From Candidatus Latescibacteria bacterium 4484_181 (GTDB taxonomy: Bacteria > Latescibacterota > MVCY01), in assembly GCA_002049985.1 (NCBI GenBank), contig MVCY01000057.1:1-19272 (forward strand): 19,272 nucleotides of DNA. The letters run 5' to 3'. The notes below the pieces were generated by a model. The model saw nothing but the letters and a program-made list of their open reading frames with translations, ran no database searches and was not told the origin of the DNA. Positions within the stretch are counted from its first letter, which is position 1, and each line of letters starts with the position of its first letter. Position numbers and translations under genes: made by a program. Below, in pieces: positions 2,464 to 19,003 of the stretch.

Positions 2464-3324
2464 TTATGAACGGCAGCGGTAATCCATAGCCACCGTTCCG
2501 ATAAAACCCCATTCTTCCCCTATTATGGAGTAGATAAAGTCGGTGTGGGGGGCAGGCAAGAAGAGGAATTTCTGCCTGCTGTGACCCAGTCCCAATCCCC
2601 GCAGACCCCCGCTCCCCAGCGCTACAAGCGATTGATACGTTTGGTAATTTATACCTTGAAGATTTTCTGCTGGATGCAAAAAGGCCTTCAGTCTGGCCAA
2701 TCTGTAGCCTACCTGAGATATAGAAAGATAGATAACGGGAACCGCTGCCAATACAAGACCTCCTAAATGGAGAAGCTTTATTCCGGCCAAGAAGAACATA
2801 GCCGTGACTACCGTCATAATGGCCACAGCGGTACCTAAAGCCGGCTCCAAGATAATCAAACCCACGGCCATAAGGAGAATCAATAGATGGGGTAGGAACC
2901 CCCAGACAAAACTCTTTATTCGATCCTGTCGCCTCGCCAGTGAATCAGCCATATAGATGATCAATGCGACTTTCATAAATTCCGAGGGTTGAAAATTGAA
3001 CCTGCCAATGTGAATCCAGCGGCAGACCTTTTGAGGCTGACCTGTAAACTTCGGCATTAACACCAGCACCAAGAGAAGAAATCCCAACAGCAGAAGAGAT
3101 ATTGCCGCTGTGCCAGAAAGCTTGCTGTAGTCAGTAAGCGAGGCCAGAATCATCACCGATGTCCCCAGTAGAACTATAAATAGATGCTTCTTCAGAAAGA
3201 AACTGCTGTCTTGGTACTTCACCTCCGAGATCACCGAACTGGAGCTGTAAACCATCACCACCCCTATTCCCACCAGTACTATAGTGACGGCTAATAGTGT
3301 GAGGTCAACGGAATTCTCCTTCAC
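2464..3324 (-). CDS. ftsW: FtsW (SEDS-family lipid II flippase/polymerase), C-terminally truncated at 286 aa
   Basis: Multi-TM protein with the SEDS motif ...PAPHTDFIYSIIGEEWGFIG, but the ORF stops about 10 residues later (DYRCRS*). The last two TM helices and the conserved PTKG..TLPF(I/L)SYGGSS block are absent. Only 79 nt separate the stop from the murG start, so the missing ~80 codons are not present in any frame. GTG start at 3324 is preceded by the Shine-Dalgarno-like run GGGGGAG. Confidence 0.75.
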   Translation of the reverse strand: MKENSVDLTLLAVTIVLVGIGVVMVYSSSSVISEVKYQDSSFFLKKHLFIVLLGTSVMILASLTDYSKLSGTAAISLLLLGFLLLVLVLMPKFTGQPQKVCRWIHIGRFNFQPSEFMKVALIIYMADSLARRQDRIKSFVWGFLPHLLILLMAVGLIILEPALGTAVAIMTVVTAMFFLAGIKLLHLGGLVLAAVPVIYLSISQVGYRLARLKAFLHPAENLQGINYQTYQSLVALGSGGLRGLGLGHSRQKFLFLPAPHTDFIYSIIGEEWGFIGTVAMDYRCRS

Positions 3325-4532: not shown

Positions 4533-5792
4533 TCACCGGTACTTGCCACAGTCTATATTTTCCATAATCTCTTCCATTCTCAGCCTCCGGGAACCTTTGA
4601 TCAAAATCACATCTCCCTCTCTCAAAAACTGGGAAAGCCACTCCGAAACTTCCTGGTTATCTTGGAAGTGCCTGGTCTTTCCGGTCATCCCCAGACTATC
4701 TGCCTTATGGGACGCCAGCTTCGACAATTCTCCCACGGTCAACAGATAGTCAATACTGCTTTCTGCCACATACTGGCCAATCTGTTCGTGAGCCTGTGGG
4801 CCGTGCTCTCCCAGTTCTAACATATCTCCCAACACAGCAATTCGTCGCCCTCACAGCAATTCGTCGCCCTTGAGGTTTAACTTCCAGAGAAATAAGCAAT
4901 TGCAGTGCAGCTTTTGTCGAATCAGGGTTGGCATTATAGGTGTCATTGATGAATCTGACACCGCCTTTGTCCAGCATCTGGCATCTGAGGGCCGGGGGCC
5001 GAACCAGCAGAGGACTTCTGCCTGGAGATCCGTCCTGGCCTTGATTCCAAACCCTACAAATCTTCCCTTAACTTCACTACTTATGGCCTGCAGGTATGGG
5101 TCGTCCATATTGAGCACCACAGGGCCTGAGTTGTTCAGATATCTTATCAGCTCTGCCTTGGACTGCGCTATCTGCTGGATGGTGCCGAAACCCTCAAGGT
5201 GAGCCGGGCCGATGTTAGTAATAAGACCCGTCTCAGGGGCAGCTAACTCTGCCAGTCGTCCTATTTCCCCCGGGGCACTTGCCCCTAACTCTACCACCCC
5301 AAACTCATGTTGAGGAGAAAGCCGTAAGAGCGTGAGGGGAAGACCAATGTGGTTGTTAAGATTACCCTCCGTCTTAAGTACCCGGAACCGGGTGCCCAGA
5401 ATCTCCGCAGTCATATCCTTAGTGGTAGTTTTGCCATTTGTCCCTGTAATAGCAACAAAGGGGATAGGGAATCTTCTCCTATAGGAGGCTGCCAGTCTTT
5501 GTAGAGCCAGCAAGGGATCATCCACCCTGATCAGCAATCCATCACTTTCTGCCAGCTTCGGATAATCTCGCCGGACAATGGCTGCACTGGCCCCTTTCTT
5601 GAGTGCCTGGGGCACAAACTGGTGCCCATCGAATCTTTCCCCTTTGAGGGCAAAGAATACCTGACCCCTCTGGAGTGTTCGGGAGTCTATGGAAACGCCT
5701 TGCGGTTTCCGGCTCAGAGAGGATGGAACAGAATTCCCTTCTGCCTGACCACCAACATCAACAATAATCTCTTCTATCGAAAGTCCCTTCAT
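4533..5792 (-). pseudogene. murF: UDP-MurNAc-pentapeptide synthetase MurF, split over three reading frames (about 5009..5792, about 4870..4977, 4536..4832)
   Basis: Frame 1 has the GTNGKTTT P-loop and reads through ...VGFGIKARTDLQAEVL. Frame 2 reads LDKGGVRFINDTYNANPDSTKAALQLL...GRRIAV. Frame 3 reads LGDMLELG...VILIKGSRR to the stop at 4535..4533. The 2-to-3 shift is caused by a perfect 19-bp tandem duplication. The 1-to-2 junction also lacks about 70 residues compared with E. coli MurF. Confidence 0.8.
4833..4870. repeat. Perfect 19-bp tandem duplication (cacagcaattcgtcgccct x2) inside murF
   Basis: Copy one is 4833..4851 and copy two is 4852..4870, identical. Removing one copy restores the MurF reading frame (...GRRIAVLGDMLELGEHG...). 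Confidence 0.9.
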
Positions 5793-9529: not shown

Positions 9530-10302
9530 TTCGAATCCGCTGTCTTCTCTGCTACTCTCAGTTTAGCACTTCTTGCCCGCCGGTTGGCCTTTTTCTCCTC
9601 TTCACTGGGTAAGATTGGCCTTTTGGCAATCAACTTCAGTATCTTTTTCCCCCCGCATACACAAGTCGGAAGTCGAGGAGGACAGATACAGCCTTTAGAG
9701 TACTGAATGAATAACGATTTAATTGTGCGATCCTCCAAGGAGTGATAAGAAATAATACAAAGCCTTCCTCCGGCCTTCAGAAGGTTGATGCACTGTTCAA
9801 CAGAAGGCCTCAGGATTTCGAGTTCCAGCTCCTCTTCCGGATAGGTATTAACCACCTGCCAGGCCGTCTTTTGGGCCTGGGGATTCATCCTCATATCCAG
9901 CGGACCGCGGAACCTGTAGCTGAAACCACGCCTGGGAGAGTCAAGCTGATGGGAAGAGACTCCCAAATCGAGTAGTATCCCGTCTACAGCTTCAATGCCT
10001 TGCTGTTGCAAGATTGCCGGTAAGTTTTGGAATCCCGACAGATGAAAGCTGACTTTTTCGCCGAAGAGAGAGAGTCTCCTCTTGGCTGCCTGGATTGCCT
10101 CCGGGTCCTGGTCTATGGCGATCAGCCTTCCCCTCTCGCCTAAGCCGGAGAGAACCTGGTAAGCGTGCCCGCCCCCTCCCACCGTGCCATCGACATATAT
10201 CCCGTCCGGATTGGTGAGAAGATATTCCACCGTCTGCCTCAGAAGCACCGGAAAGTGAAAATCCTGTTGGGCAGTCATAGTTTCACACTTGGAACTCCTC
10301 AC
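9526..10302 (-). CDS. rsmH: 16S rRNA (cytosine1402-N4)-methyltransferase RsmH/MraW, abnormally short; the likely true start is ATG 10278 (the track ORF begins at GTG 10302)
   Basis: The SAM-binding motifs (DGTVGGGGHA, ILLDLGVSSHQLD) and the C-terminal GGRLCIISYHSLEDR and RARSAKLRV are present. About 55-60 residues between ...NTYPEEEL and ELEILRP..., which in other RsmH proteins include the HPATRTFQA(L/I)RI block, are missing in-frame. ATG 10278 lies 4 nt after the mraZ stop. Confidence 0.8.
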   Translation of the reverse strand: MRSSKCETMTAQQDFHFPVLLRQTVEYLLTNPDGIYVDGTVGGGGHAYQVLSGLGERGRLIAIDQDPEAIQAAKRRLSLFGEKVSFHLSGFQNLPAILQQQGIEAVDGILLDLGVSSHQLDSPRRGFSYRFRGPLDMRMNPQAQKTAWQVVNTYPEEELELEILRPSVEQCINLLKAGGRLCIISYHSLEDRTIKSLFIQYSKGCICPPRLPTCVCGGKKILKLIAKRPILPSEEEKKANRRARSAKLRVAEKTADSK

Positions 10303-12103: not shown

Positions 12104-13306
12104 ATGCGCAGACCCTCGGTATTAGAATGGATTCTCATCGGTTTTCTTCTCGGAATTGTGGCTGGGGCTACAGTGGGGCCTTCCATTGCTATAATTAAGC
12201 CCTTGGGCACAGTCTTCATAAGACTATTGAAGATGCTGGTGGTGCCTTTGATATTCAGCACCCTAACCGTTGGGGTCTCTACCTCCAGCGGCGGCAAGCT
12301 GGGCAGAATGATAGGAAAGACCTTTCTCTTCTATTATGTCACTGGCATCTGTGCCCTCTTAATCGGATTGATCATAGCAGGGGTAAGCCGTGTGGGCACC
12401 GGGATGCAGTTGGGAGGAGTAAGAGAGGTGGCCCTCCAGAAGGCTCCGCCTTTGAGCCAGGTACTTCTGAATATCATCCCCACCAATCCAATAAAAGCCC
12501 TGGCTGAGGGGAATATCCTGCAGATAATCTTCTTCGCCATTCTGTTCGGGATAGCTATAAGCAAAGCAGGGAAAGCGGCCGAACCGGTTAAGGACTTTTT
12601 GCAGGCAGTGGCCCAGACTATGTACAGGTTAGTGAATCTTGTGCTTTACTACGCCCCCATCGGGGTGTTTTCTTTAATAGCCTGGACAGTGGGGACCCAC
12701 GGTCTGGGCGTTCTGAAACCTTTTGCCTACTTGATATTTCTGTTCTACTTGGGCTGCGCTATTCAACTTTTCTTGGTCTACGGAGGTTTACTCAGACTCT
12801 TGAAGATAAGACCCTTCAGGTTCTTTGGCCGAATCAAGGAGGCTCCCTTTTTCGCCTTTAGCACCTGCAGCAGTTCAGCCACCCTTCCGGTCACCATGCG
12901 GGTAGTACAGGGCACCGGGGTTTCGGCCACTACTGCCAGTTTTGTCCTGCCTATGGGGGCTTCCATTAATATGGACGGCACCGCCATCTATCAGGCTATG
13001 TGTGTGGTCTTTCTGGCCAACGCCTTTGGAATGCACCTAACGGTTGCACAGATGGCCATAGTCGGGGTTACTGCCCTGTTGGCCTCTATAGGAACCGCCG
13101 GCGTGCCGGGCTCAGGACTGATAATGCTTACGATGGTACTGGGCTCAGTGGGTGTGCCTGTGGAGGGTATAGCCTTCGTTGCCGGCATTGACCGGATAAT
13201 GGATATGGCCCGAACTGCAGTGAATGTGGTGGACGATAGCGTCGCCGCTGCCATGGTAGCAGTTACCGAGGGAGAAACTTTGTCAGAAGATATGATGATC
13301 AGCTAG
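12104..13306 (+). CDS. Sodium/proton:dicarboxylate (glutamate/aspartate/C4-dicarboxylate) symporter, GltP/DctA/GltPh family, 400 aa
   Basis: Collinear with the GltPh fold: LKMLVVPLIF, hairpin HP1 region TCSSSATLPVTMRV, the NMDGTA motif (GASINMDGTAIYQ), and HP2 SIGTAGVPGSG. The preceding AAGGGA looks like an RBS. Confidence 0.85.
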   Translation: MRRPSVLEWILIGFLLGIVAGATVGPSIAIIKPLGTVFIRLLKMLVVPLIFSTLTVGVSTSSGGKLGRMIGKTFLFYYVTGICALLIGLIIAGVSRVGTGMQLGGVREVALQKAPPLSQVLLNIIPTNPIKALAEGNILQIIFFAILFGIAISKAGKAAEPVKDFLQAVAQTMYRLVNLVLYYAPIGVFSLIAWTVGTHGLGVLKPFAYLIFLFYLGCAIQLFLVYGGLLRLLKIRPFRFFGRIKEAPFFAFSTCSSSATLPVTMRVVQGTGVSATTASFVLPMGASINMDGTAIYQAMCVVFLANAFGMHLTVAQMAIVGVTALLASIGTAGVPGSGLIMLTMVLGSVGVPVEGIAFVAGIDRIMDMARTAVNVVDDSVAAAMVAVTEGETLSEDMMIS

Positions 13307-14176
13307 GGATTGAATGCCAAGAAAAGAGAAAGCAGTTAATCCTCAAGCAATTTGTCTATCTTGCTCTTTATTCACGGATCCACTTTGAAAGTAGTCTTTT
13401 GATTGTCTGAGACCACTGTTCTTTTCAAAAATAGGTATAGAAAACTCCTTCTTTAAGGTCTCACTCAGCCGAGAGAATAGCTGATGTAAGGTTTTGGAAT
13501 GAATAGCCCTCCTACTGAGCCGGTTGTAGAAGATCTAGATTCTCTCCAGAAGACGAGAAGAATACGCAGATGGCGCAGGCTATTCTCAAAACGACCAGAG
13601 AGCTGTATATCTTGTTTCGTTCGCCTTTTTATCGCCACTTGCGGTCAGATCAAATTTTCGCGAGAGCGTGATCTTCGGTTTTCGTTGCTGAGCTACGGCT
13701 GGCTTTATCCTCGGAATCGGCCGCACTGCCCACTTGCCACGGCGGGGTTTAATCGCTTGAAATCAACGCTAAGGAAACTGAATGTTTGCTCCTATGTGAG
13801 TCTTAGCATGTGGTCTTTTCCCGGTTCAGCCTAATATCAACCTCATTCAACTCACCAAGAGTGTCTGTCTGCCGTTTTTGCCGGCCAAGCAATTTTCGAA
13901 AATCCCTACACGGATTGCCAGTCAGGCAGCCCGGGAGAACCTCACTCTCAGGCGATCACACATTGGGACATAAACCTCGCGGCTCATGCCACCTATCGCC
14001 CGACCGCTGGTAGTATTCCCACCGCGAATGGAGAATAGTTCCAGCTGGCACACCAGAAATGAAAAGGGAAATATACTAACTTGCTGACTATTCGAGAAAC
14101 ACATTCTGTTGTGGTCTCAGTATCTTTGCAGCAAGAAGCGGCTTTGTGTCCTTCTGGGGGCGGATTAAAGTTTCCC

Positions 14177-14205
14177 TTGACAAAACTTGATGTTTGTTGT
14201 ATAAT
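14177..14205 (+). promoter_or_regulatory. Perfect-consensus sigma-70 promoter upstream of map
   Basis: TTGACA (14177..14182), an exact 17-nt spacer, then TATAAT (14200..14205). GGAG sits 10 nt before the GTG start at 14241. Confidence 0.55.
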
Positions 14206-14240
14206 GACTTTTCCTAGCTTTACCGCGGAGCCCAATCAAT

Positions 14241-14999
14241 GTGTTTATTTTGAAGTTCTTAGGTGTGACACCGCAATATGATTTCCTTGCAACCTTGAGA
14301 AATCTGATACAGCCGGGGATAACTACCAAAGAGCTGGACCAAATAGCAGAGGACCTGATATTGAAGAAAGGCGCTGTCCCTGCCTTTAAGGGATACATGG
14401 GTTATCCGGCAGCTCTTTGCACCTCGGTCAACGAAGAGGTGATTCACGGAGTCCCAGGGCCTCGCCAGCTCAAACCGGGGGACATAGTGAGCTTGGACTT
14501 AGGGGTGAAGCTTGGTGGTTACTATGGTGATGCCACCATCACAGTGCCGGTGGGAGAGGTGAGCAAAGAGGCCGAAAGGCTGCTTCGGGTAACAGAAATG
14601 GCCCTGTATGAAGGGATAAAAATGGCCCGGGTCGGCAATCGACTTTACGACATATCCTATGCCATTCAATCCCTCGTAGAGTCCAATGGCTTCTCTGTAG
14701 TGAGAGATTTTGTGGGACACGGAATCGGTAAGAATTTGCACGAAGAACCCCAGATACCTAATTTCGGACGTCCAGGTCACGGCCCGCGACTCAAAGAGGG
14801 AATGGTGCTGGCGTTGGAACCTATGGTCAATGAGGGGGGATGGCAAGTGAGAATTCTGCCAGATGGATGGACAGTCGTTACTGCTGACGGTAAGCTGTCT
14901 GCACATTTTGAACATACCATAGCTGTCACTGACACTGACCCAGAGATATTGAGTCTCCCATCCTCATCAGGGGAAGGCCAGAAAATTCTGAGGAGCTGA
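14241..14999 (+). CDS. map: Methionine aminopeptidase type I (252 aa) with an atypical or shortened N-terminus
   Basis: The full pita-bread core is present ([35 protein letters not shown] metal ligands, [28 protein letters not shown]). The N-terminal region ([29 protein letters not shown]) lacks the usual ~12-residue EKMRxAGR(L/I)xAE segment between TPE and the KPG turn. GTG start at 14241; an in-frame alternative GTG lies at 14265. Confidence 0.85.
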
Positions 15000-15032: not shown

Positions 15033-15932
15033 CAACATAACATAATAGCCACTGCCTCGGTAGGGGCAGCAATCGGTTTGACCGAGGTGATAAGTCACCT
15101 TAAGGGCACTATTCAGGTTATAGGCACCCCCGCTGAAGAGAGCGGTTGCGGGAAGAAGATCCTGGTAGAGAAAGGGATATTCAGCGGGGTGGACGCTGCA
15201 ATGATGGTTCACCCTTCCAATCGCACCTTGGTGGCACGGGGTTCCCTGGCTTCCCAACTGGTGGAGGTGAAATTTTACGGCAAGGCTGCTCACGCTGCTG
15301 CTTATCCAGAGAATGGCATCAATGCCTTAGACGGAGTCATCGAGACCTTTAATAACATCAACGCCCTTCGACAGCACCTGCCGAGTGATGTCCGCATCCA
15401 CGGTATTATCACGCACGGGGGAACAAGAACCAATATTGTGCCCGACTTCGCTGCCGCCCGCTTCCAGGTGAGGACCGCTGACGACGAATACCTTGATCAA
15501 TTGTTACAGAAAGTGGAAAACTGTGCTCGAGCGGCAGCTCTGGCCACAGGAGCCACCGTAGAATTCGTACTGAGTAACAGTCTTTACCAGGCTATGAGAC
15601 CCAACCGTGCCCTGGCCGAACTATTCGCCGCCAATCTTCGCCACCTTGGTGAGAAATTAGACGAACCACCACAGACCGGAACGATGGGGTCCACCGATAT
15701 GGGGAATGTGAGCCAGGCAGTACCAGCTATTCACCCATATATTGCTATCTGTCCCAAAGAGGTAGTGGCACATTCACCACAATTCGCTGAGGCTGCCATT
15801 TCTGACAGGGCGGATAGAGCGTTGATAACCGCTGCTAAGGCTTTGGCGATGACTGCTGTAGACCTGTTGAGCAATGCCGCTGTGATGAGTAGAGTGCAGC
15901 AGGAATTCAAATCGCACCATCAGAAATATTGA
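15033..15932 (+). pseudogene. M20-family amidohydrolase/peptidase (M20D-like) lacking its N-terminal ~100 residues
   Basis: The open frame begins right after the TAG at 15030..15032 and reads ...IATASVGAAIGL...LKGTIQVIGTPAEESGCG (the M20 GTPAEE motif), then the dimerisation and C-terminal domains to the stop at 15932. The N-terminal metal-binding region is absent. No ATG or GTG lies between 15033 and the TTG at 15078. Confidence 0.7.
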
Positions 15933-16023
15933 CGAGATATTAGTGGGCTCAACTCCCCATTTGCCAGTCACAAGTCAACAAGAGTCAAAACTAGTCGGCT
16001 TAGCGCCGGAGACTCGGTCAGCA

Positions 16024-16938
16024 GTGAAAATAGTAACCTTAGGAACAGGGGGGGCCATCCCTACCCCGGCCCGAAGTCTACCTGCAACCGCCTTGCAGAG
16101 AGAGGCAGAGATATTCCTCTTTGACTGCGGAGAAGGCACTCAGCTGCAGTTCCTAAAAGCAGATTTGAGTCCAGGAAAATTAAGGGCCGTCTTCATATCC
16201 CATCTGCACGGAGACCACATTCTGGGACTTCCAGGGCTGCTTATGACCCTGGCCCATCTGTCGCGAAAGGCTCCTCTCTCGTTGTTTGGACCGCCCGGGG
16301 TATCAGACTACATCCGCTTGACCTGTAGATGTCTTCAATTCAGTCCTGGATATGAGCTCATAGTCAAAGAATCAAGCGGAGGGCGGGTTTACAGTGGTCC
16401 TGACTACTGGATCGATGCAGTGCCTCTTGATCACACCGTGTTCACATTAGCCTATGTCTTTGAGGAAAAGGAGCGTCCCGGGAGGTTTCTCCTGGAACGG
16501 GCCCGACAGCTTGGTGTGCCTGAGGGGCCTTTGTACGGCAGGCTTCAGACCGGGACGGATGTCACCCTCAGCAACGGCAGAGTAATCCGGGCAACAGAGG
16601 TACTGGGAAAACCCAGAAGGGGAAGGAAGGTCGTCTACGCAGTTGATACCCGTCCCTGCCAACAGGTGAAAGAAATCTCCACCGGTGCAGATCTGCTGAT
16701 CCACGACGGGATGTTCTCAGACCAACTACGGGAGGAAGCCCGTCTGAAAGGACACTCCACCGCTGTTGAGGCGGCAGAGGTGGCCCAGAATGCCAAAGTT
16801 GAAAGACTTCTGCTCACTCACATAAGTCCCCGTTACCGCAATCAGGACGCACTTCTGCAGAAGGAGGCAATGACCATCTTCCCCCACACCACCGTCGCCA
16901 AAGACCTGATGCAGTTCAAAATCCAAGTGCACAAATAG
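16024..16938 (+). CDS. rnz: Ribonuclease Z / metallo-beta-lactamase-fold tRNA 3'-processing endonuclease (about 304 aa from GTG 16024; the track ORF starts at 15943)
   Basis: VKIVTLGTGGAIPT N-terminus, the HxHxDH motif (ISHLHGDHILGLPGLL), and C-terminal His/Asp motifs (LIHDGMF, LLLTHISPRY). GGAG lies about 12 nt before GTG 16024. Confidence 0.8.
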   Translation: MKIVTLGTGGAIPTPARSLPATALQREAEIFLFDCGEGTQLQFLKADLSPGKLRAVFISHLHGDHILGLPGLLMTLAHLSRKAPLSLFGPPGVSDYIRLTCRCLQFSPGYELIVKESSGGRVYSGPDYWIDAVPLDHTVFTLAYVFEEKERPGRFLLERARQLGVPEGPLYGRLQTGTDVTLSNGRVIRATEVLGKPRRGRKVVYAVDTRPCQQVKEISTGADLLIHDGMFSDQLREEARLKGHSTAVEAAEVAQNAKVERLLLTHISPRYRNQDALLQKEAMTIFPHTTVAKDLMQFKIQVHK

Positions 16939-17302: not shown

Positions 17303-19003
17303 ATGCCTTACAAACCTGAGAATCCGATGGTTGTCCAGAGTGACCGGACTATTCTGTTAGAGGTAGACAATCCTCGTTACGAGGATGCCAGGGACCGGTT
17401 AGCAAGATTTGCTGAACTGGAGAAAAGTCCCGAACACATGCACACCTACCGTATAACTCCGCTTTCGCTGTGGAATGCGGCTGCCTCTGGGCTGAGCGCC
17501 TCTGAGGTGTTGGATACCCTGGGCCGTTTCAGTAAGTACGAGATCCCTCAGAATATTGAGGCTGAGGTGATGGAGTATATCTCTCGCTACGGGAAGTTAC
17601 AACTTTGTCGATCAGGAGAAAAGCTGGTCCTGAGCTCGACGGACGCCCACATCATCAAAGAGATCTGGCACAACAGAGAGGTGCGACCGTATCTGAAAGA
17701 ACTTGTCGACGGGAAGGCCATTCTGGTGGAACCCCGCTGCAGAGGCTACCTGAAACAAGAGCTCATCAAATTTGGTCTGCCGGTGGAGGATTTGGCGGGC
17801 TACGTCGAGGGCGCTCCTCTCACCTTACTGATACGTGAGAAAACGCGAAGTGGACGGAAGTTCCAGTTGCGACCATATCAGCAGCAAGCAGTTGAGGTTT
17901 TCCACGCCAGCGGAGGTGCAACTGGGGGTTCAGGGGTAATCGTGCTTCCCTGTGGGGCTGGTAAAACGATTGTAGGAATGGCTGCAATAGAGAAGCTCCA
18001 GACCCAAACCCTCGTCTTGGTGACCAATATCACTGCCCTCCGACAATGGGAGGAAGAACTGTTGGATAAAACCACTCTTTCTGCCGACCAAATAGGCGAA
18101 TACTCCGGAGAGAAGAAGGAGGTACGTCCTGTCACCATTGCCACTTATAACATCCTCACCTACCGAAGGAGCAGAGAGGAAGATTTTCCCCATTTTGAGC
18201 TGTTTAACCGGCAGAACTGGGGGTTGGTGATTTACGATGAGGTCCATCTGCTGCCAGCGCCGGTTTTTCGTATTACTGCCGAGATTCAAGCCAGAAGACG
18301 GCTGGGGCTGACCGCCACCCTGGTGCGCGAAGACGGAAGGGAGACAGATGTGTTCAGCCTCATCGGACCCAAGAAATATGATGTGCCCTGGAAAATACTG
18401 GAAAAGCAGGGCTGGATCGCGCCTGCCGAGTGCTGGGAAATAAGAGTGGAGCTTCCTCCACAATTGAGGCTCCGGTATGCAGCGACAAACCTGCGGAAAA
18501 AGTTCCGGGTCGCATCGGAAAACCCCGCCAAGGACGAATTGGTGATAAGGCTGGTGCACCAGCACAGAGGTGCCCAGATCCTGGTGATTGGACAATACAT
18601 CGCCCAACTGGAAAACCTTGCCCGAAAACTGAACGCGCCGATCATCACTGGCAAAGTGGGGAGTTGGGAAAGGATCAAGCTTTACAACATGTTCAAACGA
18701 GGCGAGATTAAACTGTTAGTGGTGTCCAAAGTGGCCAACTTCGCCGTCGACCTGCCGGATGCTAATGTAGCCATCCAGGTCTCCGGCACGTTCGGCTCCA
18801 GACAAGAGGAGGCTCAAAGGTTGGGCAGGATACTCCGTCCCAAGACAGATGGAAGTACAGCTCGCTTCTACTCCCTGGTTACTCGAAATACTACAGAACA
18901 GGAGTTCGCCGCAAACAGACAACTGTTCCTTACTGAACAGGGCTATAAGTACACGATTCAAGACGCGACAGTCTTCTTCAGCCTAAGAAGCCGGAGGCGA
19001 TAG
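17303..19003 (+). CDS. XPB/ERCC3 (Rad25)-like SF2 DNA helicase, 566 aa
   Basis: N-terminal damage-recognition-like domain, then helicase motifs: Q/I (LRPYQQQAV...LPCGAGKT), II (VIYDEVH), III with the XPB-specific RED motif (GLTATLVREDGRE), and VI (QRLGRILR). RBS GAGAGG lies 4 nt before ATG 17303. Confidence 0.85.
   Translation: MPYKPENPMVVQSDRTILLEVDNPRYEDARDRLARFAELEKSPEHMHTYRITPLSLWNAAASGLSASEVLDTLGRFSKYEIPQNIEAEVMEYISRYGKLQLCRSGEKLVLSSTDAHIIKEIWHNREVRPYLKELVDGKAILVEPRCRGYLKQELIKFGLPVEDLAGYVEGAPLTLLIREKTRSGRKFQLRPYQQQAVEVFHASGGATGGSGVIVLPCGAGKTIVGMAAIEKLQTQTLVLVTNITALRQWEEELLDKTTLSADQIGEYSGEKKEVRPVTIATYNILTYRRSREEDFPHFELFNRQNWGLVIYDEVHLLPAPVFRITAEIQARRRLGLTATLVREDGRETDVFSLIGPKKYDVPWKILEKQGWIAPAECWEIRVELPPQLRLRYAATNLRKKFRVASENPAKDELVIRLVHQHRGAQILVIGQYIAQLENLARKLNAPIITGKVGSWERIKLYNMFKRGEIKLLVVSKVANFAVDLPDANVAIQVSGTFGSRQEEAQRLGRILRPKTDGSTARFYSLVTRNTTEQEFAANRQLFLTEQGYKYTIQDATVFFSLRSRRR

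Follow-up and report, generated by a model that had tools for sequence, protein, structure and literature searches.

Several kinds of described sequence come close to a long gene-free stretch in a bacterial genome: ordinary intergenic spacers that carry a sigma-70 promoter, decayed pseudogene or rearrangement-junction DNA, and large structured non-coding RNAs such as OLE, GOLLD, ROOL, HEARO and raiA. With the ordinary spacer and promoter, the interval between the symporter and map genes analysed here shares consensus −35 and −10 elements, the 17-nucleotide spacing between them and their location about 70 nucleotides before a start codon, as well as a promoter that is kept across relatives while the surrounding DNA drifts, but the interval (13307-14277) is about 5-10 times longer than typical gaps in the locus. 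It resembles decayed pseudogene or rearrangement-junction DNA in its neutral rate, in its frameshifting indels, in being lineage-specific and in lying at a synteny break; unlike such DNA, the spacer has no nameable ancestral gene, no protein similarity and no codon bias. By contrast, only the size class (several hundred nucleotides) and the gene-free setting are held in common with the large structured RNAs, from which the spacer differs in having neither a covariance-model match at E ≤ 10 nor excess stability, in not being conserved beyond about 96% ANI and in showing no reduction in rate.

With a coding density of 88%, this bacterial genome is one in which a functionless spacer of about 1 kb is unusual. 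Within the window (the whole stretch of 19,272 nucleotides that was analysed), the explanation that we regard as quite probable is a neutral, functionless spacer (13307-14083) joined to the map promoter region (14084-14277). The initial annotation had proposed an eroded remnant of a deleted gene, a novel non-coding RNA or a regulatory region for this stretch. Its non-coding character was retained, as was the regulatory option at the right-hand end, but neither the link to deletions elsewhere in the window nor the non-coding RNA was upheld. A candidate non-coding RNA or pseudogene is thereby struck from the list, and the interval matters little in itself, being an ordinary spacer with a promoter; within it, selection acts only on a textbook promoter and a short block in front of it.

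Extent and coding potential of the gap

The symporter gene (SDF family) occupies 12104-13306 on the + strand, with its ORF ending at position 13306, and the next real gene is map. A gene-free stretch of about 870 nucleotides had been described at this place; genes are indeed absent from 13307 onwards until the canonical ATG of map is reached at 14278, giving the gap a true length of 971 nucleotides. It is the largest gap in a locus of 21 kb, followed by gaps of 490 and 388 nucleotides, in agreement with its description as an unusually long intergenic span in a dense genome. The A/T-richness noted for its first 200 or so nucleotides was also recovered, with a GC content of 37.0% in 13307-13506 compared with about 52% in the flanking genes (52.1% in the symporter) and 50.1% in the whole window. 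In a tie, this opening segment shares the lowest GC content among 200-nucleotide windows of the sequence.

Six near-identical metagenome contigs (L001-L006) were retrieved by an exact-protein look-up of the symporter. Their identity to the window is 99.9-100%, and their source records, for samples of marine sediments and seeps, give the organisms as Candidatus Latescibacteria/Latescibacterota. In none of these contigs did gene callers place a gene in the 971-nucleotide gap that separates symporter and map. Given that positions 13307-14277 of the window are 100% identical to L001, the stretch is not an artefact of the window sequence.

A recognisable frameshifted pseudogene of a known protein-coding gene would fit the length of the gap, which suits a gene of about 300 amino acids, and would sit well with the broken appearance of several genes in the window. 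However, translation of the six frames with stops masked yielded nothing at E ≤ 1 against 5.8 billion proteins and nothing at E ≤ 10 against Pfam, so that the translated searches revealed no known gene in any frame. Likewise, tblastx of the gap against the locus itself, the neighbouring DNA, two related contigs (L007 and L167) and 1.45 Mb of related loci returned nothing beyond the promoter. A codon-usage log-odds score trained on the genes of the window itself reached a maximum of 0.077 in any frame of the gap, below the average maximum of shuffled gap sequence (0.129), with a mean of 0.235 for true genes. Furthermore, the broken genes elsewhere are explained by deletions private to the window, and the spacer is intact in every assembly. 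Such a pseudogene is therefore very unlikely. That a much older gene, decayed beyond this point, was the source of the spacer would be conjecture, with no protein similarity, no residual codon bias and no ancestor that can be named.

The gap contains sixteen ORFs of 24-111 amino acids, leaving room in principle for a missed small protein gene of less than 60 amino acids. A comparison with the sister lineage described below showed that 12 of the 16 are broken there, having acquired indels or premature stops or lost their start or stop codon; the remaining four are open and display no excess of synonymous changes where they could be scored, and none of the sixteen has a homologue. A missed gene of this kind is thus exceedingly unlikely. 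The longest ORF (13499..13834, + strand), which had been judged to lack protein-like character, does exist and encodes 111 amino acids, with no Pfam match and no homologue in an exhaustive phmmer search of 1.84 billion representative proteins. In the sister lineage (L172) it runs into a stop at codon 7 and carries indels of 1 and 2 nucleotides, and we regard it as spurious. With six-frame searches empty and a codon-usage signal absent, the assessment that all frames are non-coding was borne out.

Divergence, known elements and folding of the spacer

A sister lineage (L172-L178) was found by looking up the closest map cluster (P0001). Its genes are about 96.5-97% identical to those of the window and stand in the same order, and its symporter-map gap is 978 nucleotides long, with no gene called in the five contigs that span it (L172-L175 and L178). 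The gap aligns end to end between the two lineages, with differences at 82 of 971 sites (8.4%) and five indels of 1, 1, 2, 1 and 2 nucleotides. In eleven flanking genes, 177 of 2157 fourfold-degenerate sites (8.2%) are different, and the figure for codon positions 1 and 2 of the flanking genes is 2.0%. The agreement between the gap and the fourfold sites indicates neutral evolution of the gap; the ratio of gap to neutral rate is 1.03 (95% interval 0.82-1.28), an interval compatible with up to about 150-180 nucleotides under constraint, and the known promoter region itself diverges by 10% at the same scale. Taken separately, the spacer (13307..14083) diverges by 8.0% (62/774), and its AT-rich opening (13307..13506) by 8.2% (16/194), the same as the neutral value. 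No conservation island was seen in the spacer when the window was compared with the sister lineage, and the longest invariant run in the gap, 52 nucleotides, matches the 52.4 expected with random placement. Within the lineage of the window, three SNPs were found over 3.3 kb, two of them in the spacer.

The symporter gene shows a divergence pattern of its own. Between the two lineages its fourfold divergence is 0.171, about double that of every neighbouring gene (0.04-0.09), and divergence at codon positions 1 and 2 is also raised (0.041), with the spacer directly after it at the background of 8%. This pattern suggests a recombination tract that would end inside or at the end of the symporter. 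Separately, three sister-lineage assemblies (L173, L176 and L177) break at one place in the spacer, equivalent to 13953-14013: in L173 a run of N covers the equivalent of 13953-14012, and L176 and L177, both from sample 3300017593, stop at 13994 and 14013. Strains may differ by a structural variant at this shared break, or the assembly graphs may branch there.

Searches for known elements were consistent with the earlier remark that no tRNA T-loop, RNase P, tmRNA or SRP signature could be recognised. ARAGORN found neither tRNA nor tmRNA, and 4227 Rfam models run over the whole window gave no match at gathering thresholds. Lowering the Rfam cut-off to E ≤ 10 over 13200-14350 produced only three chance-level matches, with 14-16 bits against thresholds of 39-55 and E values of 1.7-9.6. 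No tandem repeat was found in the spacer, and blastn against plasmid and phage collections and two pattern scans of viral contigs gave no match to it. As for a replication origin or dif site, there is no cluster of DnaA boxes (the best boxes mismatch at 2 of 9 positions), the sign of the GC skew does not switch at the gap, and no 28-nucleotide XerCD (dif) site is present, the best match carrying 8 mismatches in 28. Sigma-54 and IHF motif scans of the gap returned nothing notable. The promoter scan of the gap gave the map promoter as its sole strong match, along with a single minus-strand site of 9/12 where the symporter ends. No clear intrinsic terminator consisting of a GC-rich stem-loop followed by a T-run was found after the symporter; two weak 5-bp candidates (13658-13671 on the + strand and 13577-13563 on the − strand) compare with a shuffle mean of 1.3 such sites.

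The short inverted repeats listed in the initial annotation are all present, in a size and number that chance would give. They comprise a 7-bp repeat with a 42-nucleotide loop (TGAGACC at 13408-13414 and GGTCTCA at 13457-13463), the palindrome TTTTCGAAAA at 13893-13902, and the arms CGCGG (13978-13982) and CCGCG (14022-14026). About 0.9 ten-nucleotide palindromes and 2-3 seven-nucleotide inverted repeats within 50 nucleotides are expected per 870 nucleotides. The hairpin formed by the 7-bp repeat (13408..13463, + strand) is also at chance level in its folding, its region having an MFE z-score from −1.0 to +0.6 relative to shuffles. In the sister lineage one of its pairs has undergone a compensatory change from C-G to U-A and one end pair is broken, and compensatory pairs over 13395-13480 amount to 1 of 27 in a comparison of only two diverged lineages, which leaves covariation tests of the spacer with almost no power. 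A role for this hairpin as a terminator was ruled out by the missing T-run after its stem and by its ordinary folding energy.

Folding of the whole spacer (777 nucleotides) gave z-scores of +0.59 for the + strand and −0.62 for the − strand. In a scan of both lineages with 120-nucleotide sliding windows, 56 across the two strands, and with dinucleotide shuffles as the baseline, one of the 56 windows fell below −2 in both lineages (13778-13896, minus strand, z −2.4 and −3.7). Refolding of this candidate at 171 nucleotides brought the z-score to −0.45, and compensatory pairs over 13770-13940 of the minus strand were 0 of 42, again between only two diverged lineages. The structure was rejected, as its marginal signal disappeared on refolding.

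These folding results bear on the possibility that part of 13307-14083 is transcribed as a young, lineage-restricted non-coding RNA, or as a functional long 3' or 5' UTR, and acts as a regulator. The long gene-free stretch, its nearly equal length in the two lineages (971 and 978 nucleotides), the single compensatory change in the 13408-13463 hairpin and the z-scores of the minus-strand window at 13778-13896 all speak for it. They are countered by the empty Rfam search even at E ≤ 10, by a neutral substitution rate devoid of conservation islands, by the scattering of the five small indels along the stretch and by ordinary folding energy at 71, 171 and 777 nucleotides. In addition, the map promoter is the only promoter-like site, the terminator-like sites are weak, and the next relatives have no homologue. 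A regulatory RNA or UTR of this type is accordingly unlikely. A narrower version, in which a species-restricted regulatory RNA or a functional symporter 3' UTR within 13307-14083 is too young or too small (less than about 150 nucleotides) to mark the rate, is similarly improbable. Thus, for the novel non-coding RNA once listed as an option, the absence of an Rfam match, the ordinary folds, the neutral rate and the absence of homology in the next relatives all point the other way.

Another perfect inverted pair of the window, the 10-nucleotide arms CTGAGACCAC (13407-13416) and GTGGTCTCAG (14111-14120), could be taken as the boundaries of a small non-autonomous mobile-element remnant, and the breaks of the sister assemblies L173, L176 and L177 inside the stretch could reflect a repeat or structural variation. 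Nevertheless, a 10-nucleotide inverted pair is expected about 0.5 times by chance within 1 kb, and each arm has three substitutions in the sister lineage with the loss of 4 of the 10 pairs. Neither the 21-kb locus nor the 1.45 Mb of related loci contains a second copy, the plasmid, phage and viral collections hold no match, and no transposase remnant was found. We therefore consider a mobile-element remnant highly improbable, and the stretch 13307..14083 is best described as a lineage-specific non-coding spacer for which no function was detected: it has no Rfam, tRNA, protein or Pfam match, no coding signal and a neutral divergence.

The map promoter and the junction in relatives

The right-hand end of the interval carries a sigma-70-type promoter of map on the + strand (14177..14205), in which TTGACA (14177-14182) and TATAAT (14200-14205) are separated by a 17-nucleotide spacer and match the consensus at 12 of 12 positions. 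It lies about 70 nucleotides upstream of the map start codon. The sequence AAGTTTCCCTTGACAAAACT and the motif GTATAAT do not vary between the lineage of the window, its sister lineage and the next relatives L167 and L168, and the two hexamers together with the flanking AAGTTTCCC...AAAACT are likewise invariant across L001, L172, L167 and L168. The promoter employed by organisms annotated as Latescibacteria thus seems to be of the canonical sigma-70 kind and invariant across relatives.

Upstream of the promoter, the block 14084..14176 (+ strand) is weakly conserved and represents candidate regulatory DNA for map. In an nhmmer search, positions 14085-14161 alone align to the collinear positions 2331-2411 of L167 with an E value of 0.0026, and inclusion of the promoter brings the match to L167 to 1.4e-11. 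Given the collinearity and weak conservation that 14084-14176 shows with respect to L167, in front of an invariant promoter, the regulatory-region option of the initial annotation is supported for these last 90 or so nucleotides of its interval and not for the rest (13307-14083). Downstream of the promoter, 14206..14277 (+ strand) forms the putative 5' untranslated region of map, the ATG at 14278 having been assigned from the L001 map gene (12175-12957) and the alignment. Judged from sequence, the segment 14084-14277 is functional and consists of the promoter, the upstream block and a leader of about 70 nucleotides; the promoter would be expected to fire, and the upstream block may bind a regulator.

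Farther relatives show where this arrangement ends. In L007, whose symporter is 91% identical, the order dcw-Band7-symporter is kept and a different gene follows the symporter. In L167, whose map is 91% identical, the genes map-M20-MBL come after a GXGXG-domain gene and a gap of 678 nucleotides with unrelated sequence. The different neighbour of the symporter in L007 and the different sequence upstream of map in L167 indicate that the symporter/map junction is specific to the species-level lineage. The spacer 13307..14083 could not be aligned to either contig, and its sequence is not conserved beyond relatives of about 96% ANI. Alignment to the syntenic region in relatives thus gave a neutrally evolving gap in the sister lineage and, beyond it, 14084-14223 as the sole alignable part, in the next relatives L167 and L168 (map about 91% and 86% identical). 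Neither nhmmer nor blastn matched the gap to anything in 160 related loci, which were gathered via the symporter from a genome collection and via map from a metagenome collection. In most map relatives, map directly follows adk or secY, and synteny is uninformative there.

We infer that the spacer most likely arose when a block of map, M20 peptidase and MBL hydrolase genes came to lie downstream of the Band7 and symporter genes that adjoin the dcw cluster in this species-level lineage. The spacer itself may be junction filler or sequence that has decayed past recognition. It would have a passive role at most, as an untranslated tail of the symporter transcript, whose 3' end 13307..14083 may include, and as distance between two transcription units. 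By contrast with this neutral spacer, the segment 14084-14277 would drive map and the genes that follow it through its promoter, upstream block and leader.

The gap upstream of map in L167 has features of its own. A clear-cut intrinsic terminator, AGGCGCTG...CAGCGCCT with TTCTTTTCC after it, is present at positions 2258-2300 of L167 and at the start of L168. It lies about 130 nucleotides upstream of the conserved map promoter and is preceded by about 390 nucleotides of unannotated DNA; the lineage of the window has no counterpart of it. Rfam models gave only chance-level matches on the equivalent L167 gap. That L167 also has a long gap (678 nucleotides) upstream of map could hint at a position-dependent role in the absence of sequence conservation.

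Private indels of the window

Several genes of the window are interrupted by deletions that the comparison contigs covering each site do not have. About 154 nucleotides are missing at 5003/5004 in murF, about 195 at 9825 in rsmH/mraW, about 60 at 14280-14287 in the 5' end of map, immediately behind its ATG, and about 260 at 15035 in the M20 peptidase gene. A 2-nucleotide deletion at 18971 in the XPB helicase gene and a 19-nucleotide insertion at 4853 are also private to the window. Among the six near-identical contigs and the sister contigs, which are otherwise 96.5-100% identical to the window, none that covers the respective site has any of these indels. The initial annotation had connected the stretch with this deletion pattern, as an eroded gene. 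Since the deletions are private to one sequence and the gap is the same in all contigs, they are unrelated to the gap, and a common deletion process behind the gap and the broken genes was rejected. The private indels suggest an artefact that arose in assembly, amplification or processing, and not a natural decay of genes, and their presence in essential genes calls for caution with gene-decay readings made from the window sequence alone.

Microhomology at the junctions of the private indels is slight or absent, and two of the junctions have mismatches clustered next to them. As a result of the deletion of about 60 nucleotides, the canonical map ATG at 14278 is out of frame and reaches a stop after 6 codons. 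The open frame at 14241-14999 uses an upstream GTG start, and the first 25 or so residues of map (MIILKTSREIELLRESNRIVADV...) are replaced in it by unrelated sequence. Near the left end of the window, murC (region 1-1218) is present as two fragments of 215 and 114 amino acids, and ftsW (2464-3324) is short, with 286 amino acids compared with 369 in L001. Additional deletions private to the window probably account for both; the reference contigs used cover it only beyond its first 2.4 kb.

Downstream of the M20 peptidase gene, the MBL-fold gene at 15943-16938 (14161-15156 in L001) has a precomputed Pfam match to Anti-Pycsar Apyc1 and tRNase Z-like domains. It is followed by two tandem XPB/Helicase_C_3 genes at 17303-19003 (15545-19396 in L001).
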